Shown: positions 3 to 21,499, counted from the first letter of the stretch. The stretch is 64,000 bases of DNA from an uncultured Paracoccus sp. (GCF_937873615.1 NZ_CALMYP010000065.1:97542-161541); one strand, 5' to 3'. Program-made: numbers and translations. Notes: a model not told the origin generated them from the sequence alone.

Positions 3-1337
3 GTCTATTACGTCGAAATGGCCCCCATCGGCCCGCAGATGCCCGTGTTTTCGCTGATGCCCGCCGCCGGCGATGTCGACATCATGATCACCGCCGAAAT
101 GATGGAGGCCGGGCGCGCCATCATCCGCGGCTTTGTCACCCCCGACCGGACCGTGCTGATCACCTCGTCGCATCGGGCACTGGCAGTTTCGGAAAAGATG
201 GTGCCGGGCGACGGCATCGCCTCCAGCGCCGAGGTTCTGGCAGCGGCCGAGATCGCTGCCCGCCGGTTGATCTGCGCGGATTTCGACCGGCTGGCGGTGG
301 AAAACGGCTCGGTCATCTCGGCGACGCTGTTCGGGGCGCTTGCCGGCTCGGGCGCGCTGCCATTCGACCGCACCGCCTTCGAGGAAGCCATCCGCGCCGG
401 CGGCAAGGGGGTGGAACCGAGCCTGCGGGCCTTTGCCGCCGGTCACGATCTGGCAGTCGGCGGCGCAGCACCGCAGCCGGATCGTCCCGAGGCAACGGCA
501 ACCGAGATCAGCGGCCCGGAAGAATTGCTGCAGGAATGGCGCGCCTTGACCGCACGCGCCGCCAGTCTACCAGCCGCCGCGCAGGAGATGGCCTTGGCCG
601 GACTGCGCAAGACCGTCGATTTTCAGGATGCGGCTTATGGCGCGGAATACCTGACCCATGTCGAAAGCCTCGCGCAACTGGGCAATGACGACCTGACCCG
701 CGAGGCCGCGAAATACATCGCCAATGCCATGGCTTATGACGACATCATCCGCGTCGCCGATGCCAAGACCCGCGACGGGCGCGAGGCCCGGATCTCGCGC
801 GAGATGCGCCTGCAGGATGGCCAGATCATGCAGGTGACCGAGTTCCTGCATCCGAGAGCCGAGGAGATCGTCTCGCTTCTTCCCGCGCGGATGGGCGCAC
901 GCTGGCAACAGAACCCAGGCCGGATGAAACTGATCGACCGGCTGTTCAATCGTGGCCGCCGCATCCGCAGCGACGGCATCTTCGGCTTCGGGCTGCTCTA
1001 TCTGCTGGGCGGGGCGAAGTCGTGGCGACGCCGGACCCTGCGCCATGCCGAGGAGACGGCGCATCTGCAAAGCTGGCTGACCAAGGTCCGCGAAGCCGCC
1101 GGGCGCGATGCGGGTCTGGCCATCGAATTGCTGCGCTGCCAGCGCCTCATCAAGGGCTATTCCGACACCCATGCGCGCGGTCAGTCGAAATTCGCCCGGG
1201 TGATGGGTGGCGCCGATCTGGTTCAGGACCGGGCCGACGCCGCCGACTGGGTCCGGCGCCTGCGCGAGGCGGCGCTTCAGGACGAGAAGGGCGAGGCGCT
1301 CGACGGGGCGCTGGAAACGGTTCGCAGCTTCGCCTGA
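3..1337 (+). CDS. Indolepyruvate oxidoreductase subunit beta family protein (IorB-like, with C-terminal extension); 5' end lies before the window
   Basis: Frame is open from base 3 (VYYVEMAPIGPQMPVFSLMPAAGDVDIMITAEMMEAGRAIIRGFVTPDRT). This matches the IorB-family pattern PVFALMP.PGDVD...AE.MEAGRA..RG.VTPDRT; later motifs include MAYDDIIRVAD and IKGYSDTH.RG. Confidence 0.8.
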   Translation, partial: VYYVEMAPIGPQMPVFSLMPAAGDVDIMITAEMMEAGRAIIRGFVTPDRTVLITSSHRALAVSEKMVPGDGIASSAEVLAAAEIAARRLICADFDRLAVENGSVISATLFGALAGSGALPFDRTAFEEAIRAGGKGVEPSLRAFAAGHDLAVGGAAPQPDRPEATATEISGPEELLQEWRALTARAASLPAAAQEMALAGLRKTVDFQDAAYGAEYLTHVESLAQLGNDDLTREAAKYIANAMAYDDIIRVADAKTRDGREARISREMRLQDGQIMQVTEFLHPRAEEIVSLLPARMGARWQQNPGRMKLIDRLFNRGRRIRSDGIFGFGLLYLLGGAKSWRRRTLRHAEETAHLQSWLTKVREAAGRDAGLAIELLRCQRLIKGYSDTHARGQSKFARVMGGADLVQDRADAADWVRRLREAALQDEKGEALDGALETVRSFA

Positions 1338-1344
1338 TCCGCGC

Positions 1345-1863
1345 TCAGCCTGTCGGAGAAGTCAGGCTGTCGCGCAGCCGGCGCAGCATGTCACGCATCC
1401 GGTCCAGGTCCTCATCATCGAGGACCGCGAAAAGATCCCCGACCATTTCCAGATGCTCGGCGGCAAGCACCTCGAAGAAGGCCGCCCCGTCCTCGGTCAG
1501 CCGGACCGAGACCCGGCGGCGATCCTCGTCCGAGAGCAGCCGCTCGACCATGCCATCCTGGACCAGACGGTTGACCACGGCGGTCGCGTTTCCGTTCGAG
1601 ATCAGCAACATGCGCGAAAGTTCCGTCATGGTCAGCCCGTCGCGGCGACGGTGCAGCATGGCCATGACATCGAAACGCGGCAGGGTCGTGTCATGGCTGA
1701 CACGCAGGAACTCGCGCAGCCGGCCTTCGACCTGACGGGTCACGCCCAGCATCCGGATCCATAGCCTCAGCCGGCGCATGGCCAGCGGATCGCTGACCGG
1801 ATCGTTTCGGACCGGCCTTGCGGTTTCAGGGGCGACCGGTTCCGCGCTCCGCTCTGATGTCAT
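1345..1863 (-). CDS. MarR-family transcriptional regulator, of the subtype usually found in salicylyl-/anthraniloyl-CoA hydroxylase clusters
   Basis: LRLWIRML...TTLPRFDVMAML...GLTMTELSRMLLISNGNATAVVNRL...DRR winged helix; last gene on the Rieske operon strand. Confidence 0.88.
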   Translation of the reverse strand: MTSERSAEPVAPETARPVRNDPVSDPLAMRRLRLWIRMLGVTRQVEGRLREFLRVSHDTTLPRFDVMAMLHRRRDGLTMTELSRMLLISNGNATAVVNRLVQDGMVERLLSDEDRRRVSVRLTEDGAAFFEVLAAEHLEMVGDLFAVLDDEDLDRMRDMLRRLRDSLTSPTG

Positions 1864-1942
1864 CTGAATCCGTCCATGGCCGAAAATGCTTTGAGGACGA
1901 ATATTTCAGATTGTGCGCATTTTATCCAGCCGTGAGGTTGCG

Positions 1943-2662
1943 TCAGATCGGCACAGTTCCGATGCTGGCGCCACCGCAGACGAACAGCGTCTGGCCGGTG
2001 ATAAAGCCGGCCTCTGGTTCGGCCAGGAACATGAAGGCGCGGGTCACATCCTCGACCCTGCCCAGCCGACCGACCGGGATGCGGCGCGAGAGGTCTTCCT
2101 CCTGCGCGCTGCCCTTCGGCACGATGCCCCAGAAATTGTCGGTCAGGATCGGGCCGGGGGCGACCACGTTCACGGTGATGCCATGCTCGGCCAGTTCCAG
2201 CGCCCAGGTCCGGGCCATGCCGATCATCCCTGCCTTGGACGCCGAATAGGCCGTCCGCGTCTTCGCCCCAAGCGCCGCTCGCGAGGCGTTGAACAGGATC
2301 CGCCCGAAGCCCCGCGCCTTCATCGCCGGCAGAAACGCCTGCGTCAGCGCCAGTGCCGAGCCGAGGTGAAGCTGGGTCAGCGCCAGCATATCGGCGGGCC
2401 GGGCATCCTCGATCAGGTTGGGCAGGATGATGCCCGCATTCTGGACGAAATGCGTGACCTCATGCCGGGCGGCGATATCGGCCCCGGCCTTCTCGACGGC
2501 ATCGGGGTCGGACAGATCGCAGATGAGATGTTCCACATCTGCCGCCTCGCCCGGATGGCGCGCCAGCGACACCACATGCCAGCCGCGCGCTACCATCGCC
2601 GCCGCCAGATCGGCGCCGATCCCCTTGTTGCCGCCGGTGATGACGGCGGTGTAGCCGCTCAT
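1943..2662 (-). CDS. Short-chain dehydrogenase/reductase (SDR)
   Basis: TGGNKGIG Rossmann motif, NAG, YSASK catalytic motif, NVVAPG. Start moved to the ATG at 2662, which overlaps the upstream TGA (ATGA). Confidence 0.9.
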   Translation of the reverse strand: MSGYTAVITGGNKGIGADLAAAMVARGWHVVSLARHPGEAADVEHLICDLSDPDAVEKAGADIAARHEVTHFVQNAGIILPNLIEDARPADMLALTQLHLGSALALTQAFLPAMKARGFGRILFNASRAALGAKTRTAYSASKAGMIGMARTWALELAEHGITVNVVAPGPILTDNFWGIVPKGSAQEEDLSRRIPVGRLGRVEDVTRAFMFLAEPEAGFITGQTLFVCGGASIGTVPI

Positions 2663-3126
2663 GGCAGCAACTGGATATTGCCGAAAGCGGCGTCGCAATT
2701 GAGGATGTCGACGCGCTTGCCGGCGATGCGGATGCCCTCAGGCGTGGCCTTCAGATCGTGGGTCACGGTCAGCGCCAGCAATTGCTGTTCGTCGAGCCGC
2801 GTTTCCACATAATGCATCTTGGTCGCAACACGGGCGCTGTCCTCGGTCAGTTCCAGGATCCGGGGCCGGTTCAGCACATGGTGACAGCGGCTTTTCGGCT
2901 TCTGGCTGAAGGTGCGCGCACCGTGCAGGCGTTCGATCCGCAAGCGCAGCATGAAATTGTCCTCATGCAGCAGCGAGGTTTCATTCACCGGATCCTGCTG
3001 GTTCCAGTTCAGCGGCATCCAGTAGACCGCATTCGGCAGCCAGAGGTTCAGCCAGTCGTGATACTGACCCTCGTCCAGCATCCAGGCCTCGTCATGGATG
3101 AAGTCGATCACCTCGTCCCGGTTCAT
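2659..3126 (-). CDS. Aromatic ring-hydroxylating oxygenase, beta subunit
   Basis: FIHDEAWMLDEGQYHDWLNLW...YWMP...LRIERL...KRVDILNCD; overlaps the alpha-subunit stop by 4 bp. Confidence 0.9.
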   Translation of the reverse strand: MNRDEVIDFIHDEAWMLDEGQYHDWLNLWLPNAVYWMPLNWNQQDPVNETSLLHEDNFMLRLRIERLHGARTFSQKPKSRCHHVLNRPRILELTEDSARVATKMHYVETRLDEQQLLALTVTHDLKATPEGIRIAGKRVDILNCDAAFGNIQLLP

Positions 3127-4442
3127 GCCGCACCCCCGATCATGAAGCGCTTCCAGGCATCGAACTGGTTGCGCATCTGGCGTTCCGTGGTGCCGTTCAG
3201 CACCGCCTCCTCCGAAAAGTCCTCACCGTCTTCATAGAGCCGCTGGATATTCACCCATTCCAGCCCGTCGGCCATCAGCCCTTCCTGCGCACGCTCATAC
3301 ATCTCCAGGTCGTCATGGCCGACCATCGAGGTGGGCGCATTGATCATCCGGTTATACATCGCCGTGCGCGCGGTCAGCTCCGAGGGCGCCCCGTCGAGTG
3401 CGAAGATCCAGCTTTCCACCAGCGTCTTGTCGGGGCCGAGCGGGATGAAGTTCCGCAATTGCTGGATCGGTCCCTTGATCATGATATTGGGGAAATAGAC
3501 GGTATTGTGCCGGTTCTCGCCCAGAATCGCATTCGCGCGTTCCTCGCCATAAGCGGCGACCATGGCGTCAAGATAGCCGGGGATGTCGGAATAGGCGGAA
3601 TGGATCGAGTGATGCACCCCCGTATGTCCGTGACCATTGGGCCAGGTGCGGATGCCCATATTCTCGAAGAACTCATAGGGCGACATGAAGGGGGCGATGA
3701 TCTCCATCGCCGCGGGCGTGGGCGTGCCCTCGGGCTTCTCCATCTCCTCCCAGATCTTCACGGCGGTGCCGGCGCTGGATTCATGGGCGACCATCGGGTG
3801 GCAGGTGTCGGTCTGGTTCTCGACCAGCATCTTCCAGTTGCACTTGTGCATATAGCGCAGGGGGGCGCCGGCCACGGTCAGTTTCCCCTCGGGAGAGCGA
3901 TCGACCATATTGTCGAGCGACGAGAGGGAATCGCCGAAGAATTCCTCGAAACCGATGCCCTCGGGCGCCAGCCGGGCGAAGATGAAACCGCGATAATTCA
4001 TCATCGCGCCGACCGGGGCGAGGCCATGCGATGCCTCGGTCTCCTCCAACCCCGTGCCCTCGTAACCCTTCTTCAGCGGGATCGCGAGCAGGCAGCCATC
4101 GGTCTTGAAGGACCAGGCGTGATAGGGGCAGCGGAAGAACTTTCCGGTATTGCCGGCCTTGTCGATGACGATCTTGGTGCCCTTGTGCGGGCAGCGGTTA
4201 TAAAGAACGTGAATCTCGTTATCGGTATGGCGCACCATCAGCAAAGGCTGGTCGCCGATCTGGGCGGTGATGTAATCGCCCTTGTTCGGGGTCTGGCTGT
4301 CATGGCCGATATAGACCCAGACATTGCGGAACAGGTGCCGCATCTCCAGCGCATAGACCTCGGGGCTGGTATAGACATCGCGATGCACCTGCTGCGGTCG
4401 GATCAGGGCATCGACGCGGGATTTCAGGTCGGCTTCGGTCAT
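3123..4442 (-). CDS. Rieske aromatic ring-hydroxylating oxygenase, alpha subunit
   Basis: Rieske ligands CPHKG...CPYHAW; mononuclear Fe motif ENQTDTCHPMVAH; distal DDLEMYE. Confidence 0.93.
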   Translation of the reverse strand: MTEADLKSRVDALIRPQQVHRDVYTSPEVYALEMRHLFRNVWVYIGHDSQTPNKGDYITAQIGDQPLLMVRHTDNEIHVLYNRCPHKGTKIVIDKAGNTGKFFRCPYHAWSFKTDGCLLAIPLKKGYEGTGLEETEASHGLAPVGAMMNYRGFIFARLAPEGIGFEEFFGDSLSSLDNMVDRSPEGKLTVAGAPLRYMHKCNWKMLVENQTDTCHPMVAHESSAGTAVKIWEEMEKPEGTPTPAAMEIIAPFMSPYEFFENMGIRTWPNGHGHTGVHHSIHSAYSDIPGYLDAMVAAYGEERANAILGENRHNTVYFPNIMIKGPIQQLRNFIPLGPDKTLVESWIFALDGAPSELTARTAMYNRMINAPTSMVGHDDLEMYERAQEGLMADGLEWVNIQRLYEDGEDFSEEAVLNGTTERQMRNQFDAWKRFMIGGAA

Positions 4443-4452
4443 GGCTTACTCC

Positions 4453-5418
4453 TTACAGGTCAAGCTTGAGACGGTCGGACAGCGCGCGGCTCACGCAGAT
4501 CTGCATGACCTTGCCGGAGTCGCGCTCTTCCTTCGACAGCACCACGTCGCGGTGATCGGGCGTGCCTTCCAGCACATCGGTCTGGCAGATGCCGCAATCG
4601 CCGCGCTGGCAGTCATAGACCAGGTCCACACCGGCGGCTTCCAGCGCCTCGATGATGGTCTGGTCGGCGGGGACGGTAATGACCTGCCCGGTCGAGGCGA
4701 TCTCGACTTCGAAGGGCCGGTCGCCGGCCTCGTGAGAGGTATTCTCGAACAGTTCGGCATGGAACTGTGCATCCGCGCGGCCAGCGGCTTCCATCGCGGC
4801 GCGGGTGGCATCGATCATCGGCTTCGGGCCGCAGACATAGACATGGGCGGCAGGGTCGGCCTTGGCAATCAGTTCTGCCACCGGGACCGGGCCGCCGGCC
4901 TGATCGTCGTGATGAAGCTGAATGCGCGCGCCATGGGCCGCGACCAGCCGGTCGGCAAAGGCCGCAGCGGCAGGGGAGCGGCTGGCATAAACCATGCGGA
5001 AGTCACGCCCACGGGCCGTAAGCGCCGAAGCCATGGCAATGAGCGGCGTCACCCCGATGCCACCGGCCAGAAGCAGAACCGGCCCCTGCCCATCGTCCAG
5101 CGGAAAATGGTTCTTCGGCCCGGTCGCATCGAGCCGGTCGCCCGCCTGCAAACCGTGCATGAAGCGAGAGCCGCCATTGCCCGCATCCTCCCGTCGGACC
5201 CCGAGCAGATAGGCGGCGGGCGCTGCCGCATCCCCCGCGAAATCGATCAGCGAATAGGCGTTATGCCCACCTTCCGGTAACGTCACCTCGATATGCGCGC
5301 CAGCCTCGAACGGGGGCAGCGGCGCCCCGTCGGGTCGGACCAGTTCGATTTCCCGGATCAGCTCTCCGACCTCGTCGGTGCGCCGGACGATCAGCGTCAA
5401 ATCGGTCAATGCCTTCAT
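4453..5418 (-). CDS. PDR/VanB-family FMN/[2Fe-2S] oxygenase reductase
   Basis: GAHIEV, NAYSL, GGSRFMH, AGGIGVTP, YVCGP, and C-terminal ferredoxin CQRGDCGIC...CVS. Confidence 0.92.
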   Translation of the reverse strand: MKALTDLTLIVRRTDEVGELIREIELVRPDGAPLPPFEAGAHIEVTLPEGGHNAYSLIDFAGDAAAPAAYLLGVRREDAGNGGSRFMHGLQAGDRLDATGPKNHFPLDDGQGPVLLLAGGIGVTPLIAMASALTARGRDFRMVYASRSPAAAAFADRLVAAHGARIQLHHDDQAGGPVPVAELIAKADPAAHVYVCGPKPMIDATRAAMEAAGRADAQFHAELFENTSHEAGDRPFEVEIASTGQVITVPADQTIIEALEAAGVDLVYDCQRGDCGICQTDVLEGTPDHRDVVLSKEERDSGKVMQICVSRALSDRLKLDL

Positions 5419-5475: not shown

Positions 5476-5504
5476 TTTTAAGTTTGAAATAGTGAAAATT
5501 CATA
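5476..5504. promoter_or_regulatory. AT-rich composite operator, copy 1 (TTTTAAGTTTGAAATAGTGAAAATTCATA)
   Basis: 24/29 identical to 6241-6269. Lies next to a minus-strand TTGACG-N18-GATAGT promoter candidate (5474-5445) for the Rieske operon. Confidence 0.6.
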
Positions 5505-5592
5505 CAAATTGGCTCGCGGTGAATATGTTTGGCGGCAGCCCGGGACCGGCTTAGTCTGTCCTGCACAAGGCAGGATCGCAGGGACGGAACGC

Positions 5593-6225
5593 ATGCCCGA
5601 CAACATTGATTTCAAACAGCTTGAGAACCTGGCCACGGCACTTCTGGCAAAGCCGGGGCCGGGCCGGCAGATCATTGCCATTACCGGCGCGCCGGGTTCC
5701 GGAAAGTCTACATTGGTGGAACGGCTGGCCGATACACTCGGCATGGATGCTGCCATTCTGCCCATGGACGGCTTCCATTACGACGATGCCGTGCTGGAAC
5801 AGATGGGACGTCGTCCATGGAAAGGCGCGCCCGATACCTATGACGTCGGCGGCTTGCGTAACATCCTTGCCCGCCTGCGCAATCCGGACGAAGGCGCGGT
5901 CGCCGTCCCGGTCTTCGATCGCGATCTTGAGATTTCGCGTGGCAGCGCCCGAATCATCGGCCCGGACGCCCGCCTGATTCTGGTTGAGGGCAATTATCTG
6001 CTGCTCAACATCGATCCCTGGCCCAGCCTGAGGCCTGCCTTCGACCTTACCATTCGTATCGAGGTTCCAGAACCAGAGCTGCGCCGGCGCCTGACCCGCC
6101 GCTGGCAAAGCTATGGCCTTACCGAAGCCGAGATCGCCTTCAAACTCGACAAGAACGACCTGCCAAACGGGCATATGGTCGTCAGCAACAGCGCCGCGCC
6201 TGACCATCTGATGCATGTCAAATAA
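5593..6225 (+). CDS. P-loop kinase of the YggC/FrcK (pantothenate/uridine kinase-like) family
   Basis: Walker A GAPGSGKST, LPMDGFHY, RKGAP.T.D-like segment, VEGNYLLL. Start placed at ATG 5593. Confidence 0.8.
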   Translation: MPDNIDFKQLENLATALLAKPGPGRQIIAITGAPGSGKSTLVERLADTLGMDAAILPMDGFHYDDAVLEQMGRRPWKGAPDTYDVGGLRNILARLRNPDEGAVAVPVFDRDLEISRGSARIIGPDARLILVEGNYLLLNIDPWPSLRPAFDLTIRIEVPEPELRRRLTRRWQSYGLTEAEIAFKLDKNDLPNGHMVVSNSAAPDHLMHVK

Positions 6226-6240: not shown

Positions 6241-6269
6241 ATTTGAATTTAAAATAGTGAATATTCATA
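6241..6269. promoter_or_regulatory. AT-rich composite operator, copy 2 (ATTTGAATTTAAAATAGTGAATATTCATA)
   Basis: Contains the perfect palindrome TGAATATTCA (6258-6267); upstream of the TRAP operon; 24/29 match to 5476-5504. Confidence 0.6.
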
Positions 6270-6343
6270 TTTTTCTTGCCTGAAATATTCGCAGGTGGCA
6301 GGCTGGAATGGAGAATCGCAGCAAATCGCCACGGGAGAAAGAC

Positions 6344-7363
6344 ATGCGACTGACAGGGAAGTTCGTTCTGCCAAGCCTGCTGGCACTGGCCTTCGCGGCC
6401 GGCGCCAGTGCTCAGGAAACCACATTGCGGCTGTCGAACTGGCTGCCGCCCTCGCATCCCGTGGTGAAGGACATCATGGTCCCCTGGGCCGAGCAGGTGG
6501 CTGAGGCGACCGAAGGTCGCGTCGCCGTGCAGATCCTCGACGCACCGCTGGGCCCGCCGCCGGCGCATTTCGACCTCGTCGCCAGCGGCGCAGCCGATAT
6601 CGGTTTCTCGGCCCACAGCTATACGCCCGGCCGCTTCACCCTGACCGAGATCGCCGAGCTGCCCTTTCTGACGCCCAGCTCCGAGGCCAATTCGCTGGCG
6701 CTCTGGAATGTCTGGACCGAGATGCTGGCCGAGAAGAACGAACATGCCGGCGTCAAGGTGCTGGCGCTGTTCGGACATGGGCCGGGGCACCTCTTCACCA
6801 CCGACCGCGCAGTGACGCCGCTGAGCGAGTTGAGCGGCGCCAAGATCCGCGTCGCCGGTGCGATCACCGACCAGCTGGTGCAGGGCTTGGGCATGGTCTC
6901 GGTTCAGGCGCCGTCTTCGGAAAGCTATGAACTGCTGTCGAACGGGGTCGCGGACGGGATCGTCTTCCCTTACGAATCCGTCCCCTTCTTCCGGCTTGAC
7001 GACGTGGTCAAGAACGGCCTCCGGGTCGAGGGCGGGATGTATAACGTGTCCTTCTTCTTCGTCATGAACCAGGCCCGTTTCGACAGCCTGTCCGAGGCAG
7101 ACCGCGCCGCCATCGACAAGGTCTCGGGCGAGGCCCTGGTGCGCATGGCCGGCAAGGCCTGGGACGCGGCGGATGCCGCCGGACTGGCGGCACTGGAAGG
7201 CAAGGTCAGTTTCCACGACGCCACCCCCGAGGAACACGCCGTGATCGAGGAAGACGCAAAGGCGATCTATGACCGCGTTGCCCAGGGCTACGCCGCCAAG
7301 GGCGTGGATTTCGAGGCTGCGCTGGCAATGTTCCGTGACGAGCTTGGCAAGGCCGGGCAGTGA
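6344..7363 (+). CDS. TRAP transporter substrate-binding protein (DctP family, aromatic-acid type)
   Basis: Signal peptide ending ASA-QE; LRLSNWLPPSHP; GAKIRV with the conserved Arg; GGAG RBS before ATG 6344. Confidence 0.9.
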   Translation: MRLTGKFVLPSLLALAFAAGASAQETTLRLSNWLPPSHPVVKDIMVPWAEQVAEATEGRVAVQILDAPLGPPPAHFDLVASGAADIGFSAHSYTPGRFTLTEIAELPFLTPSSEANSLALWNVWTEMLAEKNEHAGVKVLALFGHGPGHLFTTDRAVTPLSELSGAKIRVAGAITDQLVQGLGMVSVQAPSSESYELLSNGVADGIVFPYESVPFFRLDDVVKNGLRVEGGMYNVSFFFVMNQARFDSLSEADRAAIDKVSGEALVRMAGKAWDAADAAGLAALEGKVSFHDATPEEHAVIEEDAKAIYDRVAQGYAAKGVDFEAALAMFRDELGKAGQ

Positions 7364-7839
7364 GGATCGAAAAGCTGCGGATGCGGGTCCGCACCGTCTC
7401 GGCCATCATCCTCGGGGTGATGCTGGTGGCGCTGACCTGCATCACGGTTCTCGATGTGGTCGGGCGCTACCTTTTCAACGCGCCGCTGTCCGGCGGGACC
7501 GAACTGACCGAGCTTCTGGTCATGGGCGTCATCTTCGCCGGCCTGCCGGCGATCAGCCTCGATGACGGCCATGTCACCGCCGACCTGCTGTCACAGAACC
7601 TCAGCCGGCGCGGGCGGACGATCCAGTTGTTCCTGGCCCGGCTTTGCGCGGTCATCGCGCTGTCGCTGGTGACGATGGAGATGTGGAAGCACGGCGCCCG
7701 GTTGAGCAGCTACAACCAGACCACAGTCTTCCTGCACATCCCGGTCGGGCTGATGGTGCAGGCTGCGGCGGCGATCTGCGGGTTGTCGACGCTCATCGTG
7801 GCGGTGCTGGCGCTGACCCGTGCCCCGCATGGCAATTAA
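7360..7839 (+). CDS. TRAP transporter small permease (DctQ)
   Basis: Four hydrophobic segments, DVVGRYLFNAPL, GHVTADLL; overlaps the dctP stop. Confidence 0.88.
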   Translation: MRIEKLRMRVRTVSAIILGVMLVALTCITVLDVVGRYLFNAPLSGGTELTELLVMGVIFAGLPAISLDDGHVTADLLSQNLSRRGRTIQLFLARLCAVIALSLVTMEMWKHGARLSSYNQTTVFLHIPVGLMVQAAAAICGLSTLIVAVLALTRAPHGN

Positions 7840-7855: not shown

Positions 7856-9142
7856 ATGGATTGGCCGATCGGAACTGCGATACTTTTCGCCATGCTCTTT
7901 GTCGGCGTGCCTATCGGCTTTGCGCTGACCTTGGTGGGCTTTGCCGGCGTGGCCAGCATCATCGGCATCAACCCGGCACTGGCAATGATCGGGCAAGTCT
8001 ATTCCGACAGCGGCCGCAGTTATACGCTGTCGGTGGTGCCGTTGTTCCTGCTGATGGGCAACATGATCGTGCAATCCAAGATTGCCGACGAGATCTATGA
8101 CGCCGCCAATGCCTGGTTGCGCCACCGCAAGGGCGGGCTGGCCATGGCCACCATCGTCGCCTGCGGCGGCTTCGGTTCGGTCTGCGGATCGTCGCTCGCC
8201 ACCGCCGCGACCATGGGCAAGATCGCCCTGCCAGCGATGCGCCGCCACGGCTATTCCGACCGGCTGGCGACCGGATCCATCGCGGCGGGTGGCACGCTTG
8301 GCATCATCATCCCGCCTTCGGTGATCCTGGTCATCTATGGCATCCTGACCCAGCAGGATATCGGCAAGCTGTTTCTGGCCGGGATCGTGCCGGGGCTGAT
8401 GGGGATCGTCGGTTACATGCTGGCGGTCCGGCTGTCGTTGTTCCTCCACCCTGAGCCGCTGGCGCCCCTGCCCCGGCTCAGCCTCATCGCCCGGATTCAC
8501 GCCACCCGAGGCGTCGCCCCGGCACTGGCGCTTTTCGCCTTCGTGCTGGGCGGGATCTATCTTGGCATCTTCACCGCGACCGAGGCCGCCGGCATGGGCG
8601 CAGGCGCCTCGATCCTGCTGACGGCGCTGCGCGGGCGGCTGACCTGGCGGGCGACGCTGGAAACGCTGTTCGACACTGGCAAGACCACGGCGGTGATGTT
8701 CTTCGTCCTGTTCGGGGCGCTCTATTTCCTGAACTACGTCAACCTCTCGGGGCTGTCGACCGATATCCGGGGTTGGGTGCTGGGGCTCGACCTGCCGCCC
8801 GTCGGCGTGATCCTGATGATCATGCTGATGCTGCTGGTTCTGGGCAGCCTGCTGGAAAGCCTGTCGATGGTCATGCTGATCACGCCGATCCTGTTTCCCA
8901 TCGTCACCGCGCTTGGCTTCGATCCGATCTGGTTCGGGGTCTTTCTGGTCGTCGCGACCGAGCTGAGCTATATCACCCCGCCCATGGGCATGAACGTCTT
9001 CGTGCTGCGGGTCGTCGCCCGCGACGTGCCCATCGGTGAAATCTTCCGGGGCGTGGTTCCCTTCGTGCTTCTGGATGTGTTACGGCTGCTTCTGCTGATC
9101 GGTTTCCCCATTCTGGTCCTGCTGATCCCCAACGCGATGTAG
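7856..9142 (+). CDS. TRAP transporter large permease (DctM)
   Basis: GSIAAGGTLGIIIPPS, TATEAA, ITPPMGMN motifs; highly hydrophobic. Confidence 0.92.
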   Translation: MDWPIGTAILFAMLFVGVPIGFALTLVGFAGVASIIGINPALAMIGQVYSDSGRSYTLSVVPLFLLMGNMIVQSKIADEIYDAANAWLRHRKGGLAMATIVACGGFGSVCGSSLATAATMGKIALPAMRRHGYSDRLATGSIAAGGTLGIIIPPSVILVIYGILTQQDIGKLFLAGIVPGLMGIVGYMLAVRLSLFLHPEPLAPLPRLSLIARIHATRGVAPALALFAFVLGGIYLGIFTATEAAGMGAGASILLTALRGRLTWRATLETLFDTGKTTAVMFFVLFGALYFLNYVNLSGLSTDIRGWVLGLDLPPVGVILMIMLMLLVLGSLLESLSMVMLITPILFPIVTALGFDPIWFGVFLVVATELSYITPPMGMNVFVLRVVARDVPIGEIFRGVVPFVLLDVLRLLLLIGFPILVLLIPNAM

Positions 9143-9151: not shown

Positions 9152-9604
9152 TTGCCGGATCCCGACACAGCCCATCCCGGCTTTCTCGAAAACTACACCC
9201 TGTTCCTGATGGCCGTCGCCAGTGCCCAGGTCAGCCGCAGCTTTCACGAGATTGCCGCCGCGCAGGGCCTTTCCGTCGCCGAATGGCGGGTGCTGGCCTG
9301 CCTGCACGATCTGGGCAGCGCCAGCGTGTCGGAGCTGGCGCGGCTGTCGCTGCTGGAACAGTCGCGGCTGACCCATTTGATCGGCCGCATCCAGAACCGC
9401 GGGCTGGTCCTGCGTCAGCGCAGCAACCGGAACCGGCGCAGCGTGCTGGTTCGACTGACCGACGAGGGGGCGAGACTGGCCGCCGATCTGGTCGCCCAGG
9501 CCAAGGCGCACGAGAGGCAGGCGGTCACCGACAAGCTCGGCCGTGCCGATACCGAGAAGCTGCACGAGATCCTGCGCAAGCTGATCGGGCATCCGCCGGT
9601 CTGA
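9152..9604 (+). CDS. MarR-family transcriptional regulator
   Basis: GLSVAEWRVLACL...VSELARLSLLEQSRLTHLIGR...NRRSVLVRLT. Confidence 0.88.
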   Translation: MPDPDTAHPGFLENYTLFLMAVASAQVSRSFHEIAAAQGLSVAEWRVLACLHDLGSASVSELARLSLLEQSRLTHLIGRIQNRGLVLRQRSNRNRRSVLVRLTDEGARLAADLVAQAKAHERQAVTDKLGRADTEKLHEILRKLIGHPPV

Positions 9605-9616: not shown

Positions 9617-10015
9617 TCAGTCGGGGATCACCGCCGTCGCCTCGATCTCGACCTTGGCGCGGTCCTCGACCAGGGCCACGACCTGCACCAGTGCCATGGC
9701 CGGATAGCTCTTGCCGATGACCTCGCGATAGGCCCGCCCGGTTTCTTTCAACGCCGCAAGGTATTCCGCCTTGTCGGTGACATACCAGGTCAACCGCACC
9801 AGATGTTCGGGCTTTGCCCCTGCCTCGGCCAGAATGGCCACGATGCTGCGCAACGCGGTTTCGACCTGAGCGGCAAAATCGTCGGTTTCAAACTCCTGAT
9901 CGGCGTTCCAGCCGACCACCCCGCCGGTAAAGACCATGCGCCCGCGTGCGGCAATGCCGTTCGAATAGCCGGGGGTCGCTTTCCAGCCCTTTGGGTGCAG
10001 CACCTCATGTTGCAT
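9617..10015 (-). CDS. RidA/YjgF-family enamine/imine deaminase
   Basis: GYSNGIAA.G, FTGGVVGW, YPAMALVQV..L, KVEIEATA. Confidence 0.9.
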   Translation of the reverse strand: MQHEVLHPKGWKATPGYSNGIAARGRMVFTGGVVGWNADQEFETDDFAAQVETALRSIVAILAEAGAKPEHLVRLTWYVTDKAEYLAALKETGRAYREVIGKSYPAMALVQVVALVEDRAKVEIEATAVIPD

Positions 10016-10424
10016 CGCATTGCTCCTTGAATTTCATCATCGTCTCGCGGATCCCGTCCGGCCACGGCGTGGCCTTTCCGCCATCCGAGACCCAGACAAC
10101 CGTCAGCATCGCCGCCAGCCGCTTCTCGCCATCGCAGTCTGCGCGCAGATCGAAAGCCGCGCTCGCGCCGCCGATGCGATGGATCTCCAATGTGAAATCC
10201 AGCAGGTCACCAAGGCGGGAAGGGGCGGAGAATTCGGCCTCGATGCGGACCGTCGGCACGCCCGTGCCCTCGTCGAGATGCATCCGGCGGAAGGGATAGC
10301 CGACGACTTCGGCAAAGAAGTTCTCGACGACCGAGTTGGTCATCTCGAAATAACGGGGATAGAAGACGATCCCCGCCGGATCGCAATGGTTGAACTCGAC
10401 CTGAATGCGACGGCGATAGATCAT
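10005..10424 (-). CDS. Acyl-CoA thioesterase (4-hydroxybenzoyl-CoA thioesterase/hotdog family)
   Basis: [14 protein letters not shown] hotdog motif; LGDLL.F. Confidence 0.88.
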
Positions 10425-11545
10425 GGCATTACACTTCGCGCGATGATCAGGCGCTGCACGTCGCTGGCACCTTCATAGATGCGCAGGGCGCGGATCTCTC
10501 GATAAAGCTCCTCGACCTTGACGCCATGCTTCACGCCGTCGCCGCCATGAAGCTGAACCGCCATGTCGATCACCTCCTGCGCGGCCTCGGTGGCGTAAAG
10601 CTTGGCCATCGCCGCCTCGCGGCTGATGCGCGACGCGCCCCGGTCCTTGGTCCAGGCGGCGCGATAGATCAGCAGCGCCGCCGCGTCGATCTTCAATGCC
10701 ATATCGGCCAGATGCCCCTGCACCATCTGCAACGAAGCCAGCGCCTCGCCCTGAATGCGGCGGCTGGCCGTTCGCGCGAGCGCCTCGTCAAAGGCCCGTC
10801 GCGCCATGCCAAGCGCCGCCGCGCCAACTGTCGGGCGGAACACGTCCAGAACCGACATGGCCAGCTTGAACCCCTGCCCCGGCTGGCCGATCAGCGCCGC
10901 ATCGGGCAGGAAGGCACCCTCCATCCGCAGGGTCGCCAGCGGATGCGGGGCGATCACCTCGATCCTCTCTGCGATGGAGAGGCCCGCAGTCTCTGCCGGC
11001 ATCAGGAAGGCCGACAGGCCGCGCGCGCCCGGCGCCTCGCCGGTGCGGGCGAAAATGACGTAAAGATCGGCGATGCCGCCGTTGGAGATATAGGTCTTCT
11101 CGCCGCTCAGGCGGTAGCCGCCCTCGACCTTCTCGGCGGTGGTCGTGGTGGCGGCCACGTCGGAACCCGATCCCGGCTCGGTCAGGGCGAAGGCTGAAAT
11201 CGCGGTGCCGGCGCGGGTGCGGTCCAGCCAGGCGCGTTGTTCGGGCGTGCCGAAAAGGCTGATCGCCCCCATGCCCAGCCCCTGCATGGCAAAGGCGAAA
11301 TCGGCAAGCGCATCGTGCCGGGCCAGCGTCTCTCGGATCAGGCAGAGCGTGCGCACGTCAAGCGCCTCGCCCCCCGAATGGCGCAGCCAGCCGCCCTGCC
11401 CAAGCGCCGCAACCAGCCCGCGACAGGCCGCGTCCACATCGCCATGATCGACCGGCAGATTGGCGGCGCACCAATCATCCAGCGCCGCCGCCAGGTCGCG
11501 GTGGTGATCCTCGAAAAACGGCCAATCCAGAAAACTGCGATCCAT
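10421..11545 (-). CDS. Acyl-CoA dehydrogenase family protein
   Basis: [12 protein letters not shown]-terminus typical of anthraniloyl-CoA clusters; [38 protein letters not shown]. Start moved to 11545. Confidence 0.9.
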
Positions 11546-11588
11546 AACCTTACCCAAATCCTGACCGGGGGCGCTTGCCCCTGCGTGG

Positions 11589-12401
11589 TCAATTCCCTTC
11601 GAAAACCGGCTTTTCCTTGCCGACAAAGGCGCGATAGGCGCGGGCGAAATCCTGTGTCTGCATACAGATCGCCTGCGCCTGCGCCTCGGCCTCGATGGCC
11701 TGTTCAAGACCCATGTTCCATTCCTGGTTCAGCTGGGTCTTGGTGATCCCATGGGCAAAGACCGGCCCCGCCGCGATGCGATGCGCCAGCTTTTGCGCCT
11801 CTGCCTCCAGCCCATCGGCGGGGTGCAGGCTGTTCCAGAACCCCCAGGCCGCACCTTCTTCGGCGCCCATCACCCGACCGGTATAAAGAAGCTCTGCCGC
11901 GCGGCCTTGGCCGATGATCCGGGGCAGCATGGCGCAGGCCCCCATGTCGCAGCCGGCAAGGCCGACGCGGGTGAACAGGAAGGCGCATTTCGCCTCGGGC
12001 GTTGCCAGCCGCAGATCCGAGGCCATGGCGATGATCGCCCCGGCCCCCACGCAGATCCCGTCCACCGCCGCGATCACCGGCTTGCCGCAGCCGATCATCG
12101 CCTTGACCAGATCGCCGGTCATGCGGGTGAAGGCCAGAAGCCCTTTCATGTCCATGCCGACCAGCGGGCCGATGATGTCATGCACATCCCCGCCCGAGCT
12201 GAAATTCCCGCCATTCGAGGCGAAGACGACCACATCGACATCACTTGCATAGGCCAGGGCACGGAACGTGTCGCGCAACTCGGCATAGCTTTCGAAGGTC
12301 AGCGGGTTCTTCCGCTCTGGCCGGTCGAGCCGGATGGTGGCGATGCGGTCGTGGCACTGCCAGAGGAAATGTTTCGGGGTGATCCCGGCCATCTCGGTCA
12401 T
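11589..12401 (-). CDS. Enoyl-CoA hydratase family protein
   Basis: [39 protein letters not shown]; AAGGA RBS before ATG 12401. Confidence 0.9.
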
Positions 12402-12431
12402 GTCATATCCTTGGTTCACGGTTTCGGGCGC

Positions 12432-13172
12432 TCATATCTCGCCACCGGCAATGGCAATGGCCTGCCCGTTGATCGCGTCCGAGCCTGCCCCGCAGAGCCA
12501 GAGCGCGGCGGCACTGACCTCGGCTGGCTGAACCAGCCGGGCCTGCGGGTTGGATGCGGTCAGCGCCGAAAGCGCCTGCGCCCGGTCGCCGCCGGTCTTC
12601 TTCATGATATTGGCGATGGAACGCTCGGTCATTTCGGTGTCGAGAAAACCGGGGCAGAGCGCATTCGCCGTCACTGGCCGCTTCGCCACTTCCAGCGCCA
12701 GGCTGCGGATCAGCCCGACCACGCCATGTTTCGCCGCCGCATAGGGCGCGACATAGCGATAGCCCTTCAGCCCGGCGGTCGAGGCGATGGCGATCAGCCG
12801 ACCCCAGCCGTCCATCCGCAGAAGCCCTTCGCGCAGGGTCAGGAAGGTGCCGGTCAGGTTGACTGCCAGCATGGCATTCCAGTGATCCAGATCGACACGG
12901 TGAAATGGCGCGCTATTGGCCGCACCGGCATTGGCGATGACGATATCGCAGGGGCCGGCGGCGTCGAACATGGCCCGGGTGCTGGCCTCGTCGGTCACAT
13001 CGGCGGTCACGGCAAGGGCACCGGGCAGCGTGGCCGCCAGGCTTTCCAGCGGTTCCGCGCGACGCCCGGCAATGACGACACGCGCACCGGCACCGGCAAA
13101 GGCGCGTGCCAGATCGGCACCCACGCCCGAGCCCCCGCCCGTGATCAAAACCTGCTTGCCTGCAAGCGCCAT
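12432..13172 (-). CDS. SDR, 3-hydroxyacyl-CoA dehydrogenase-like
   Basis: ITGGGSGVG, NAG, YAAAKHG, NALCPGF.DT. Start moved to 13172. Confidence 0.9.
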   Translation of the reverse strand: MALAGKQVLITGGGSGVGADLARAFAGAGARVVIAGRRAEPLESLAATLPGALAVTADVTDEASTRAMFDAAGPCDIVIANAGAANSAPFHRVDLDHWNAMLAVNLTGTFLTLREGLLRMDGWGRLIAIASTAGLKGYRYVAPYAAAKHGVVGLIRSLALEVAKRPVTANALCPGFLDTEMTERSIANIMKKTGGDRAQALSALTASNPQARLVQPAEVSAAALWLCGAGSDAINGQAIAIAGGEI

Positions 13173-13270
13173 TGCCTGCCCCCTCCACTCGCCCTGCTCA
13201 ACGAACCGTGCCATAGCCATAAGTTTATATCAAACACAAATAGTTTGAACACGAAGCACCTTCTGCGCGC

Positions 13271-14458
13271 TCAAAAGAACGCCTGCAACCCGGTCTGGGC
13301 GCGACCGAGGATCAGCGCATGGACATCATGCGTGCCCTCATAGGTATTCACGGTTTCCAGGTTCACCATGTGGCGGAAGACCGGGAATTCGTCGGAAATG
13401 CCGTTGCCACCATGCATGTCGCGCGCCATACGCGCGATTTCCAGCGCCTTGCCGCAATTGTTGCGCTTGATGAGAGAGATCATCTCGGGCGCCATCTTGC
13501 CCTCTTCGAACAACCGCCCGACACGCAGCGCGGCCTGAAGCCCGATGGTGATTTCGGTCATCATGTCGGCCAGCTTCTTCTGGTAAAGCTGGGTCTGCGC
13601 AAGAGGCCGGTCGAATTGCTTGCGGTCAAGCCCGTATTGCCGCGCCGCATGCCAGCAGGTCTCGGCAGCCCCCATCGCCCCCCAGGCAATGCCGTAACGC
13701 GCGCGGTTCAGGCAGCCGAAGGGGCCGGCAAGGCCCTCGATCTCCGGGAAGATCGCGCTTTCCGGAATCTCGACATTCTCCATGACGATCTCGCCGGTGA
13801 TCGAGGCGCGCAAGGACAGCTTGCCTTCGATTTTCGGCGCCGACAGCCCCTTCATGCCCTTTTCCAGCACGAAGCCTCGGATCTTGCCGCCATGCGCCTC
13901 GGACTTGGCCCAGACCACGAAGACATCGGCAAGGGGAGCGTTCGAGATCCACATCTTGGTGCCGTTCAGCACATAGCCGCCCGGAACCTTTCGCGCCACC
14001 GTGCGCATGCCGCCCGGATCGGACCCCGCATCCGGTTCGGTCAGGCCGAAACAGCCGATCCACTCGCCCGAGGCCAGCTTGGGCAGGTATTTCTGCCGCT
14101 GCTCTTCCGAGCCATAGGCATGGATCGGATACATCACCAACGAGGACTGCACCGACATCATGCTGCGATAGCCGCTGTCCACACGCTCGACCTCGCGCGC
14201 GACAAGGCCATAGGCGACATATCCCGCGCCGATGCCGCCATATTCCTCGGGCACGGTCACGCCCAACAGGCCCTGCGCGCCCATTTCGGCGAAGATCTCG
14301 GGGTCGGTCTGCTCGTTGCGGAAAGCCTCGCGGACGCGCGGTTCCAGCTTCGACTGCGCATAGGCGCGGGCGCTGTCGCGGATCATTCGTTCTTCGCTGC
14401 TCAACTGCTGATCCAGCAGGAAGGCATCGTCCCAGACGAGCTTGTTGGTGTCTTTCAT
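13271..14458 (-). CDS. gcdH: Glutaryl-CoA dehydrogenase
   Basis: W.D.FLLDQQL..EERMIRD; [19 protein letters not shown]; [14 protein letters not shown]; [11 protein letters not shown]; [18 protein letters not shown]. Confidence 0.92.
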
Positions 14459-14468
14459 TATCCTGTCC

Positions 14469-16817
14469 TCATCCCCGCATATGCTGGCCGGGGGCGGCCT
14501 TGCGCTGGAGTTCCAGCAGTTTCTCGCGCGCCTTCTCGGCCTCTCGGAAAGCCTGCGCCCCGCCTGCGGCATAGGGCTTCGGCCAGGCCTTGCGGTTCTG
14601 CGCGCCATACCAGGCCGCGGCCTGATTGGCGAAGAAGGGGTTCGACAGATGCGGTCGGCCAATGGCGACCAGATCGGCGCGGCGGGTGTGCAGGATGGTA
14701 TTGACCTGCCCCGGCTCGGTAATGGCGCCCACGGCCATGGTGGCCATCTTCGGCACATTGCGCACGGCCTCGGCCAGGTGGGTCTGGAACATGCGGCCAT
14801 AGATCGGCTTCTGGTCCGGCACGGTCTGCCCGGCAGACACGTCGATCAGGTCGCAGCCGGCATCGCGGAAGGCCTCGGCAATGGCGAAAAGATCCGCCTC
14901 GCTCAGCCCGCCCTCTTTCCAGTCGCTGCCCGAGACGCGCACCGACATCGGCCGATCCTCTGGCCAGACGGCGCGCATGGCCGCGAAGACCTCCAACGGA
15001 AAGCGCAGGCGGTTTTCAACGCTGCCGCCATAATCATCGCCGCGCAGATTGGTCAGCGGCGACAGGAACGAGGCCAGCAGGTAGCCATGGGCGCAATGCA
15101 GTTCCAGCATGTCGAAGCCGGCCCGCGCGGCGCGTTCGGTCGCCTGCACGAAATCGGCCTTGATCCGGTCCATGCCCGCCCGATCCAGTTCCGCCGGAAC
15201 CTGGCTTACGCCCTCGAACCACGGAATCGGAGAGGCCGAGACAAGCGGCCAATTCTCCCCGCTCTCGGCAATCGGATGATCCATCCTTTCCCAGCCAAGC
15301 TGAGTCGAGCCCTTGCGACCCGCATGTCCCAACTGCATCGCCACCTTGGCGCCGGTATTGTCGTGGATGAAATCGACGATCTCGGTCCAACGACGTTCCT
15401 GCTCGTCGGTCCACATGCCGGGGCAGCCCTGCGTGATGCGGGCATCGGCGGAAGGACAGGTCATTTCGGTGAAGATCAGCCCCATGCCGCCGGTGGCATG
15501 GCTGCAATAATGCACCTTCAGCCAGTCGGTCGGATTGCCGTCGCGGTCGCAGCTGTATTGCGCCATGGGCGACATGACGACACGGTTCATCAACTCCATC
15601 CCGCGCAGGCGGAAGCGCGAGAACATCGGCGTCGGCCGGGTCTCGCGCAGATCCTCGCCGGTTTCGCGCAGGTGACGAGAATACCATTCGTCATCGGCGC
15701 AGCGCACGAAATCGGGGTCACGCACGATCAGGTTGTCATAGGTGATCGACTTGGCGCGGCACATGACCACCATGGCGAACTGGTATGGCTCCATATCCCA
15801 GGACCGGTTCATATGCTCGAACCAGGCGAGCGACACATCGGCATTGTGCTGGATGATCTGGCAGGGCGTCCGCCGGGCCGTGTCATAGGCGCGAAAGGCC
15901 GCCTGCACATCGGTCTCGGCATGTTCCAGCAGCGCATCCGACAGCGCAATGGCGCATTCCATCGCCAGCTTGGTCCCCGACCCGATCGAGAAATGCGCGC
16001 TCGCCTTCGCATCGCCCAGGATGACGATATTGTCGACGAACCAGTTCTCGCAGAAGACGCGCGGGAAATTGCGCCAGTTCGAGCGGTTCAGCAGCAGCGG
16101 ATGGCCCTGCAATTCCTCGGCAAAGATCGCCTCAAGCTTGGCCTTGGAACCTTCCTCGTCGAATTCCTGAAATCCGTGGCCCTGCCAGGTGGCTTCGTCC
16201 ATCTCGAAGACCCAGGTCGAGCGGTCCTTCTGATACTGATAGCAATGCGCGACCATCTGGCCATGCTCGGTCTCGCGGAAGAAATAGTTGAACTCGTCCA
16301 TGGGCCGGCTGGAGCCCATCCAGCAGAAACGGTTCGATTTCCAGACCGTGCTTGGCTGGAAACCATCCTTGTAATGCTCGCGAATGGCCGAGTTGATGCC
16401 GTCGCCGGCCACGATCACGTCGGAATCGGCGAAGCGGGTCTTCAGGTCCTCGGGCTTGATCTCGACCCCGAATTCCAGGCGCACACCCAGTTCGGCGCAG
16501 CGGTCCTGCAGGATGGTCAGCAGGGTCTGGCGCGAGGTGCCGCAGAAGCCGTTGCCGGCACAGCGCATTTCCTGCCCCTTGAAATGCACGGCAACGTCGT
16601 CCCAATAGGCGAATTCGTCGCGGATGCGGTCGAAAACCGGCTTGTCGCGGCTGAGAAACTGGTCGAGCGTCTCGTCCGAGAACACCACCCCGAAGCCGAA
16701 CGTATCGTCCGGCTGGTTGCGCTCATAAACCTCGATATCCCAGTCGGGCCGCGCCTTCTTGGTCAGAAGCGCAGTATACAGCCCGCCCGGGCCACCGCCG
16801 ATTACCGTGATTTTCAA
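14469..16817 (-). CDS. Bifunctional salicylyl-CoA 5-hydroxylase / 2-aminobenzoyl-CoA monooxygenase-reductase (AbmA-like; FAD monooxygenase fused to an OYE-type domain)
   Basis: N-terminal [37 protein letters not shown]; C-terminal OYE motifs [41 protein letters not shown] start at 16817 with GGAGG 5 nt upstream. Confidence 0.9.
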
Positions 16818-16874
16818 TGCAACCTCCTGCGAATCGAAGTTCATGGGCTGACCAATCCCTAACATGCCTGAGTT

Positions 16875-16896
16875 TATATTTTAAGCTCAAAATATA
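16875..16896. promoter_or_regulatory. 22-bp near-perfect palindrome TATATTTTAAGCTCAAAATATA, candidate MarR operator
   Basis: Differs from its reverse complement at only 2 positions; about 60 bp upstream of the abmA-like start; core is 12/16 identical to the sites at 5475 and 6240. Confidence 0.65.
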
Positions 16897-21498: not shown

Positions 21499-21499
21499 G

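Follow-up and report, generated by a model that had tools for sequence, protein, structure and literature searches.

Root-associated bacteria such as Variovorax rely chiefly on the iad locus to clear surplus auxin and so restore root growth, and efforts to engineer the locus into commensals are under way. Here we analyse a 64,000-nucleotide stretch of an uncultured Paracoccus sp. (hereafter the window; contig C65:97542-161541) whose left end, judged by homology, holds a rearranged member of the published iad family joined to an operon of the abm type. The iad gene set is known; the variant joined to an abm operon is new, and it carries a testable assignment for the proteins IadA and IadB (together IadAB). 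In our main reading, to which we give a probability of about 60%, the left 17 kb of the window and the 8 kb preceding it form one supercluster for indole-3-acetic acid (IAA), built of three modules with a MarR regulator each, in which IadAB would feed the abm operon.

The Variovorax operon runs iadR (MarR), iadA (iorA), iadB (iorB), iadC (reductase), iadD/E (Rieske oxygenase), iadF (AMP-forming ligase), iadG (thiolase), iadH (short-chain dehydrogenase, SDR), iadI (cyclase), iadJ (SDR) and transporter genes (PMC12852158; PMC9613470 Supplementary Table 1), with iadA and iadB as exclusive marker genes of iad-like loci (PMC9613470). Variovorax genetics and metabolomics assign the first oxidation to IadCDE and the second to IadJ, a dehydrogenase yielding C10H9NO4 (PMC12633357, a 2025 preprint). 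IadF, IadG and IadH then take off the side chain via a CoA ester, and IadI acts on C8H7NO2. In the same study a construct carrying iadC-K2 without iadAB still restored anthranilate, and C8H7NO3 (the formula of isatinate) and C7H7NO built up strongly only in that iadAB-less construct. The published pathway ends at anthranilate and gives IadAB no function.

IadAB resembles the indolepyruvate:ferredoxin oxidoreductase (IorAB) of archaea and anaerobes, which likewise pairs a thiamine diphosphate (ThDP) alpha subunit bearing Fe-S cysteines with a beta subunit whose N-terminus is gamma-domain-like. IadB differs in its added DUF6537 (505 aa in all), and both subunits score far lower against the archaeal equivalogs. 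For the chemistry proposed here, the direct precedent is phenylglyoxylate:acceptor oxidoreductase (PadEFGHI) of Azoarcus and Thauera, a ThDP/Fe-S enzyme that converts an aryl-glyoxylate and CoA to an aroyl-CoA and CO2; Hirsch et al. are said to have described it in 1998 as making benzoyl-CoA from phenylglyoxylate. The likeness is one of reaction alone: PadEFGHI has five subunits and belongs to anaerobic metabolism, whereas IadAB has two subunits, carries DUF6537 and occurs in aerobes, and its proposed reaction is the 2-amino analogue. The aerobic 2-aminobenzoyl-CoA pathway of Azoarcus/Aromatoleum evansii, which Schuhle et al. reportedly described in 2001, is said to be encoded by abm clusters comprising AbmA, beta-oxidation-like genes and the ligase AbmG. 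Those clusters share with our locus a two-domain FAD monooxygenase and old-yellow-enzyme (OYE) reductase followed by hydratase, dehydrogenases and thioesterase. Unlike them, our locus has no ligase of this kind in cluster or genome, its AbmA is divergent, and its MarR gene has moved to the Rieske operon.

The window belongs to a Paracoccus-like draft genome of 3.86 Mb in 74 contigs, 99.6% complete, and the analysis included the whole genome and the 20 kb left of the window. Genes were called by open reading frame picking guided by third-position G+C content (GC3), and domains and families were assigned by Pfam and NCBIfam scans. Co-occurrence counts come from 201 genomes that sample the window's family at roughly one per genus, with IorB counts covering the high-scoring type alone and leaving out lower-scoring paralogues. 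Neighbourhoods were read from 80 loci whose IorB is 60-77% identical to that of the window, annotated with the window proteins. An IadD query returned marine Alpha- or Gammaproteobacteria for all of its best 80 loci; Variovorax iad loci were reached by a ligase query and a genus search. One further locus, L080, is labelled as a metagenome-assembled genome (MAG) of Variovorax paradoxus (CALRPT020000008.1) and was left out of the Variovorax evidence. In this 3.9-Mb genome the layout around IorAB is that of Alphaproteobacteria, AbmA lies about 9 kb from it, and the label is probably wrong.

Relation to the iad family

The catabolic unit begins about 8 kb left of the window, and a full set of Iad homologues is found at the locus, with IorA and IorB lying between two iad operons (Table 1). 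IadD is 74-93% identical to its counterparts in the best 80 loci, all of which have iad gene order and come mostly from marine Alphaproteobacteria, including Roseibium aggregatum; against Comamonadaceae- and Reyranella-type loci with the order iadA-B-C-D-E-F-G-H-I-J it is 61-69% identical. IadG, IadH, IadI and IadJ are 57-90% identical to those of marine iad loci. The pairing of a Rieske operon with IorB, described in the earlier note, is not new: it is that of the published iad locus (PMC9613470, PMC12852158). The note's broader proposal, that upper and lower auxin steps are linked in one Paracoccus-like genome, is supported; the closest homologues, at 75-93% identity, all come from Paracoccus.

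Compared with the iad loci of Variovorax paradoxus CL14/V. boronicumulans, Achromobacter and Bradyrhizobium japonicum, the gene set is shared and the arrangement is not. Here the genes form three divergently arranged operons in a rearranged order with three MarR genes, the ABC system gives way to a tripartite ATP-independent periplasmic (TRAP) transporter, a kinase-family gene is added, and an abm-type operon is physically joined. Some marine iad loci have close orthologues of the TRAP proteins, about 60-90% identical, beside iadC-J; many others adjoin TRAP sets that are more remote, at about 25-55% identity. By this synteny dctPQM is the probable IAA uptake system, replacing IadKLMN of Variovorax. 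The kinase-family gene is absent from canonical iad loci, and is found 74-76% identical and syntenic in Paracoccus relatives only.

Two of these relatives, P. xiamenensis and Paracoccus sp. S1E-3, hold the same modules in another order. There, iadF-I-H-G has the TRAP-kinase-iadCDEJ-MarR1 block on its other side, and iorB is the immediate neighbour of the abm operon. That the supercluster has been kept through rearrangement argues for a functional linkage of its modules. In two related genomes IadD is matched by two pieces lying next to each other (G192:C3:132089-133374 and G172:C13:63343-64625); there the gene may carry a frameshift or be in decay, with IorB and AbmA still intact.

The ligase left of the window is best read as the side-chain ligase of this pathway. 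It passes the narrow equivalog NF004808 at 804 bits (cut-off 722) and reaches only 224 bits against TIGR02262, the benzoate/2-aminobenzoate-CoA ligase family (cut-off 375). It is 55-61% identical to the ligase that lies between iadE and iadG in iad loci of Comamonadaceae, Ottowia, Hydrogenophaga, Reyranella and Bradyrhizobium, and that position and identity mark it as an IadF of the Variovorax type. With the corresponding ligase of marine alphaproteobacterial loci it shares only about 32% identity, yet the two are reciprocal best matches. Among the 80 loci found with the ligase as query, 57 carry iad core genes. An anthranilate-CoA ligase is ruled out for this gene by the TIGR02262 score, the IadF orthology and the iadE-iadF-iadG position. 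The earlier note had pointed to the left flank as the place to look for iorA, an isatin hydrolase and a CoA ligase, and had held that an essential anthranilate-CoA ligase just outside the window would speak against its proposal. The first two genes are there, and the ligase that is also there is IadF.

IadAB and the fate of isatinate

IadI matches isatin hydrolase A of Labrenzia (5NNB) at 484 bits and keeps 11 of 11 named metal and pocket residues (His69, His73, Asp75, His79, Asp193, His207, Gln219, Trp59, Trp61, Trp80 and Tyr204). We therefore assign it by sequence as an orthologue of isatin hydrolase A, a member of the Mn-dependent cyclase family. Work on the characterised isatin hydrolases A and B of Labrenzia (Roseibium) aggregata (5NNA/5NNB, 4J0N) covered the enzymes alone, and the structural paper is silent on the neighbouring IorAB and Abm genes. 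Outside iad loci, the hydrolase beside IorAB is about 80% identical to the characterised isatin hydrolase B, which rules out the idea that this cyclase is a kynurenine formamidase of the kynurenine route.

IorAB keeps company with this hydrolase across genomes. An isatin hydrolase homologue lies upstream in 57 of the 59 IorB loci that have at least 6 kb of upstream sequence, and in 60 IorB loci it stands upstream of iorA on the same strand. Within 10 kb, IadD occurs in none of the 80 IorB loci and IadG in 2 of the 80, so IorAB travels with isatin hydrolase independently of the IAA-specific genes. AbmA follows within 10 kb downstream in 21 of the 60 loci with enough downstream sequence. Often the whole forms one co-directional array of hydrolase, FAD oxidoreductase, MarR, IorA, IorB, AbmA, SDR, MarR, enoyl-CoA hydratase (ECH), acyl-CoA dehydrogenase (ACAD), thioesterase and RidA. 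In a Rhodobacter MAG (L036:1660-7323; the layout recurs in most of L004-L082), two flavin amine-oxidase-like genes (PF01593) flank the isatin hydrolase B orthologue, of which one separates the hydrolase from MarR-IorAB, and an SBP_bac_5 ABC binding protein is encoded nearby. These PF01593 genes of iad-less loci may generate isatin from an indole-type or amine substrate.

Co-occurrence gives the same picture at genome scale. Of the 201 family genomes, 42 have high-scoring IorB and 76 have full-length AbmA. The two occur together in 40 genomes; 2 carry just IorB, 36 just AbmA, and 123 lack both (odds ratio 68, Fisher p = 1.3e-18). The two genes lie within 15 kb of each other in 18 of the 40 co-occurring genomes, which belong to different genera. 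IadD orthologues occur in 20 of the 201 genomes, every one IorB-positive (20/20). In other lineages, 31 of 32 iad-carrying genomes have AbmA above the cut-off; within the genus Variovorax, which carries two or three IorB paralogues, the IorB family is present in 37 of 41 genomes and AbmA in 38 of 41, the genes being unlinked. The wider IorAB family is not confined to AbmA genomes, as seven genomes have a lower-scoring paralogue (438-530 bits) and no AbmA.

These patterns make the earlier note's suggestion that an IOR-like enzyme makes 2-aminobenzoyl-CoA the best candidate available, by its synteny with isatin hydrolase and its co-occurrence with AbmA. IorA has features typical of Fe-S 2-oxoacid oxidoreductases: a ThDP motif GDG-X27-N at residues 479-509 (GDGGFWHNG...N), a TPP_enzyme_C domain, and Fe-S-type cysteines (C408xxC411, C438, C584, C618/C624/C630, C654xxC657xxC660...C670). 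The N-terminal 200 aa of IorB resemble IOR_beta. On neighbourhood evidence the marker genes iadA and iadB receive a precise assignment, isatinate + CoA -> 2-aminobenzoyl-CoA + CO2, that is well supported but unproven.

The pathway we propose runs as follows. In the upper module, TRAP would import IAA, and IadCDE with IadJ would oxidise it, as the Variovorax homology suggests, to a dioxindole-acetate-type acid. IadF would form the CoA ester of this acid, from which the thiolase-like IadG and the DUF35-SDR protein IadH would remove the two-carbon side chain to give dioxindole or isatin. In the central module, IadI would open isatin to isatinate (2-aminophenylglyoxylate), an aryl-2-oxoacid, and we infer that IadAB, by means of ThDP and Fe-S, oxidatively decarboxylates it with CoA to 2-aminobenzoyl-CoA. 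In the lower module, the AbmA-like monooxygenase/reductase would dearomatise the thioester, and hydratase, dehydrogenases, RidA and thioesterase would process the ring product. In a bolder and hypothetical extension, the IadC reductase would hand the electrons of IadAB on to the Rieske oxygenase, and the final step would thereby pay for the first.

Extended beyond this genome, the assignment would make IadAB-type IorAB proteins oxygen-compatible, ATP-free isatinate:acceptor oxidoreductases, and 2-aminobenzoyl-CoA the physiological product of both the iad pathway and the widespread iad-less isatin module, with anthranilate as a side or overflow product. We lean slightly towards this wider view. 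If it is true, the iad pathway is completed, its end product corrected and its carbon route into central metabolism made clear, and a two-subunit subfamily of aerobic 2-oxoacid oxidoreductases gains a substrate. Marine Paracoccaceae and related bacteria commonly carry isatin and auxin catabolic modules, a finding that bears on auxin signalling between algae and bacteria.

The strongest competing account takes this for a usual iad locus with free anthranilate as its end point. Some AMP-forming ligase would then activate the anthranilate into the abm route, and IadAB would have another task, perhaps the oxidation of indolepyruvate or a different arylpyruvate to arylacetyl-CoA, or the supply of reducing equivalents. 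Several observations favour this account and weigh against ours. Anthranilate is the reported end product, and it arises in Variovorax without iadAB (PMC12633357). NCBIfam names the family 'indolepyruvate oxidoreductase', although the subunits fall below the cut-offs of both archaeal equivalogs (271 against 650.9 bits for TIGR03336; 38.8 against 205.8 bits for TIGR03334), scores that indicate a distinct subfamily whose name does not establish its substrate. A PDB sequence search with IorA returned no solved relative, and the literature we searched gave no function for IadA or IadB, no biochemical or genetic evidence on them, and no enzyme converting isatinate to aminobenzoyl-CoA. Most abm operons have an AbmG-like ligase even beside IorAB: the class (340-380 bits against TIGR02262) is kept in 33 of the 40 genomes positive for both IorB and AbmA, and operons combining isatin hydrolase, IorAB and AbmA hold it too, which makes a free-anthranilate route possible there. 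The close relatives P. xiamenensis, P. aurantiacus, S1E-3 and S-4012 keep an unlinked AbmG-like ligase, and the lack of one here may stem from recent loss or from a break in the draft assembly. In addition, generic acyl-CoA synthetases of this genome (PRK08162, PRK07529 and PRK12582) could in principle activate anthranilate.

Other evidence makes free anthranilate an unlikely end point here. IadD is missing from 22 of the 42 IorB-positive family genomes, and 78 of the 80 IorB loci pair IorAB with an isatin hydrolase B orthologue, often with AbmA, and no IadCDE or IadFGH. Such iad-less loci encode no IAA or indolepyruvate chemistry, and isatinate is the sole 2-oxoacid in sight. Material with the formula of isatinate accumulates only when iadAB is missing. 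In the window genome itself there is no member of the benzoate-CoA-ligase family, the best TIGR02262 match being IadF, and no AntA-type anthranilate dioxygenase was found. The remaining AMP-forming ligases of the genome are MatB, a DmdB-like protein, the three generic synthetases just named, and three more that we take, from length only, for Acs, PrpE and acetoacetyl-CoA synthetase. Without ligase or dioxygenase, free anthranilate would have no visible fate here, and no source of the thioester other than IadAB can be seen.

How far IadAB can replace a ligase differs between genomes. The earlier note had seen no AMP-forming ligase in positions 1-24 kb, and indeed no AMP-binding gene appears in the window at E <= 1e-20. 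Its further proposal, that the IOR-like enzyme takes the ligase's place, fits this genome and a few others and fails as a general rule: an AbmG-like ligase is present in 68 of the 76 AbmA-positive family genomes, in 54 of the 76 within 12 kb of AbmA, and in same-family relatives of the window genome 2-5 kb from it. Eight AbmA-positive genomes lack the AbmG-like ligase, seven of them IorB-positive and one IorB-negative; four have no TIGR02262-family match at all, and all four, the window genome among them, are IorB-positive. The skew, though suggestive, does not reach significance. Most relatives have the ligase as well, with IadAB as an additional feeder beside it.

The abm-type operon and its monooxygenase

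The minus-strand operon comprises seven genes, in order of transcription AbmA-like, ACAD, SDR, ECH, ACAD, thioesterase and RidA. The last five, from SDR on, stand in the order of the relatives' abm operons. The AbmA-like protein has both expected domains, FAD_binding_3 at residues 18-333 and Oxidored_FMN at 414-749, and its alignment to NF006101 spans model positions 2-763 of 768. The cluster called complete in the earlier note does contain all its genes, although its AbmA belongs to a divergent subtype. The label 'gcdH' given there to the second acyl-CoA dehydrogenase finds no confirmation, as that protein matches no glutaryl-CoA dehydrogenase model above cut-off; a gene 73-81% identical to it adjoins the abm clusters in loci L003, L006 and L016.

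The substrate of AbmA is the weakest link of the lower half. The enzyme could act on salicylyl-CoA or another 2-substituted benzoyl-CoA, with the right-hand cluster merely neighbouring the iad genes, and three observations tell against our reading at this point. The protein scores 1012.7 bits against NF006101, under the cut-off of 1078, as compared with 1185-1331 for typical members in related genomes. With typical AbmA it shares only 45-48% identity. Its own subtype, 76-82% identical, occurs in four other genomes beside a thioesterase and without beta-oxidation genes, and in one case (L086:9692-19347, genome G022, 76% identical) the thioesterase is joined by an AMP ligase of 571 aa, a CMD-family gene and an ABC transporter of branched-chain type. 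This last group, an aryl-acid ligase/hydroxylase/thioesterase set, is salicylyl-CoA-hydroxylase-like, and the subtype may normally serve a different route. Such a substrate is nonetheless improbable here. The six genes behind AbmA are 50-87% identical to typical abm genes, and a RidA deaminase suits an amino substrate. The supercluster has retained an abm-type MarR, and an operator-like element of iad type precedes abmA. The corresponding position beside iorB is taken by a typical AbmA in the close relatives P. xiamenensis and Paracoccus sp. S1E-3. The monooxygenase gene of the window seems to have been exchanged for a paralogue.

That iad and abm adjoin by chance, as two independent islands in a region rich in aromatic-degradation genes, is very improbable: the two are usually far apart in Variovorax and Bradyrhizobium, and 22 of the 40 co-occurring family genomes do not have them within 15 kb or on the same contig, but against this stand the strength of the co-occurrence, the close pairs in different genera, the recurrence of the linkage in Reyranella-type, Thiomonas and Phenylobacterium loci, and the persistence of the supercluster through rearrangement.

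Gene map, regulators and neighbouring genes

Every gene named in the earlier note is present where it had been placed, by Pfam and NCBIfam (Table 1); the kinase-family gene had gone unmentioned there.

Table 1. Features of the catabolic unit; positions are those of the window unless prefixed C65 (contig)
Feature	Position	Strand	Evidence or remark
iadF, AMP-forming CoA ligase, 555 aa	C65:89597-91264 (6.3-7.9 kb left of window)	-	see text
iadG, SCP-x-type thiolase-like	left of window	-	minus-strand operon
iadH, DUF35(ChsH2)+SDR fusion	left of window	-	minus-strand operon
iadI, cyclase-family hydrolase (isatin hydrolase)	left of window	-	minus-strand operon
MarR0 (third MarR)	left of window		divergent from iorA
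iadA/iorA, 715 aa	C65:95217-97364		directly upstream of iorB; stop overlaps iorB start
iadB/iorB, IOR-family beta subunit, 505 aa	3-1337 (start 180 nt left of window)	+	NF006179 672 bits (cut-off 348), DUF6537
MarR1, abm-type, 3' end of Rieske operon	1345-1863	-	Pfam MarR
iadJ, short-chain dehydrogenase	1943-2698	-	adh_short; 60-90% identical to IadJ position in marine iad operons
iadE, Rieske oxygenase beta	2659-3126	-	Ring_hydroxyl_B; orthologues 51-92% identical in iad loci
iadD, Rieske oxygenase alpha, IAA-attacking by homology	3123-4442	-	Rieske + Ring_hydroxyl_A
iadC, FNR-type reductase with 2Fe-2S domain	4453-5418	-	NAD_binding_1 + Fer2; conserved position before iadD
AT-rich operator-like element, 28 nt (TTTRAKTTTRAAATAGTGAAWATTCATA)	5477-5504	+	iadC-kinase divergent promoter region
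nucleoside/nucleotide-kinase-family gene	5509-6225	+	NF006746 248.7 bits (cut-off 250)
second element copy	6242-6269		before dctP; 28-nt direct repeat, 86% identical
TRAP dctP	6308-7363	+	DctP domain
TRAP dctQ	7360-7839	+	DctQ domain
TRAP dctM	7856-9142	+	DctM domain
MarR2, IadR-type (auxin-sensing type by similarity)	9152-9604	+	7KFO match; orthologue of iadC-divergent MarR
RidA-family deaminase, last abm operon gene	9617-10015	-	Ribonuc_L-PSP; 75-79% identical in relatives' abm operons
4HBT-type acyl-CoA thioesterase	10005-10424	-	4HBT_2; 50-56% identical in abm operons
acyl-CoA dehydrogenase	10421-11707	-	ACAD domains; 68-81% identical in abm operons; real start probably near 11580
enoyl-CoA hydratase	11589-12419	-	ECH_1; 73-87% identical in abm operons
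abm-operon SDR	12432-13220	-	adh_short; 64-67% identical in abm operons
second acyl-CoA dehydrogenase	13271 to ~14455	-	ACAD domains; NCBIfam best matches all below cut-off
abmA-like FAD monooxygenase/OYE reductase fusion, 798 aa	14469-16865	-	FAD_binding_3 + Oxidored_FMN
near copy of the element, one indel	16880-16900		15 nt upstream of abmA start; this genome only

The three MarR proteins appear, by homology, to map to the three modules. MarR2 matches the IAA-binding MarR_73 of V. paradoxus (7KFO) at 81 bits and is 40-72% identical to the MarR encoded divergently from iadC in canonical loci. MarR1 finds its best PDB match in 3boq and shares 58-66% identity with the MarR of relatives' AbmA-SDR-MarR-ECH operons, which bears out the earlier observation that the abm-type regulator sits at the end of the Rieske operon. 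MarR0 accompanies IorAB and resembles a B. japonicum MarR.

A single operator shared by all promoters is found only in part. The iadC-kinase and dctP regions hold clear copies of one element and abmA a similar one; the marR0-iorA region holds a different sequence. Three Paracoccus relatives have the core of the element, TTTAAGTTYGAAATAGTGAA, at the equivalent intergenic site, and 4.6 Mb of loci hold no other occurrence. This pattern was derived after the sites had been seen, a point against our reading, so the abmA element is only a hint of co-regulation. The kinase gene, with one clear copy before it and the other before dctP, seems to have been inserted along with a copy of the promoter/operator. 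Between marR0 and iorA, at L002:9125-9148, lies a 10+10-nt palindrome, GTAGATTTTA/TACAATCTAC, which is a candidate operator for MarR0.

Beyond iadF, at C65:85299-88761 (window -12242 to -8780), lie genes for an RraA-like protein, an amidase-signature protein of 450 aa and a histidinol-dehydrogenase-like protein. The amidase could be a hydrolase of indole-3-acetamide or auxin conjugates that feeds the locus. On the other side, the genes from 16936 on are unrelated to the catabolic unit. Abutting abmA, positions 16936-23994 hold an unrelated sugar-acid cluster with a LacI regulator divergent from a second TRAP system, a glyoxalase/VOC protein, a RuBisCO-like protein and a four-carbon-acid kinase (SBD_N/NBD_C); murC/murG/ftsW follow it.

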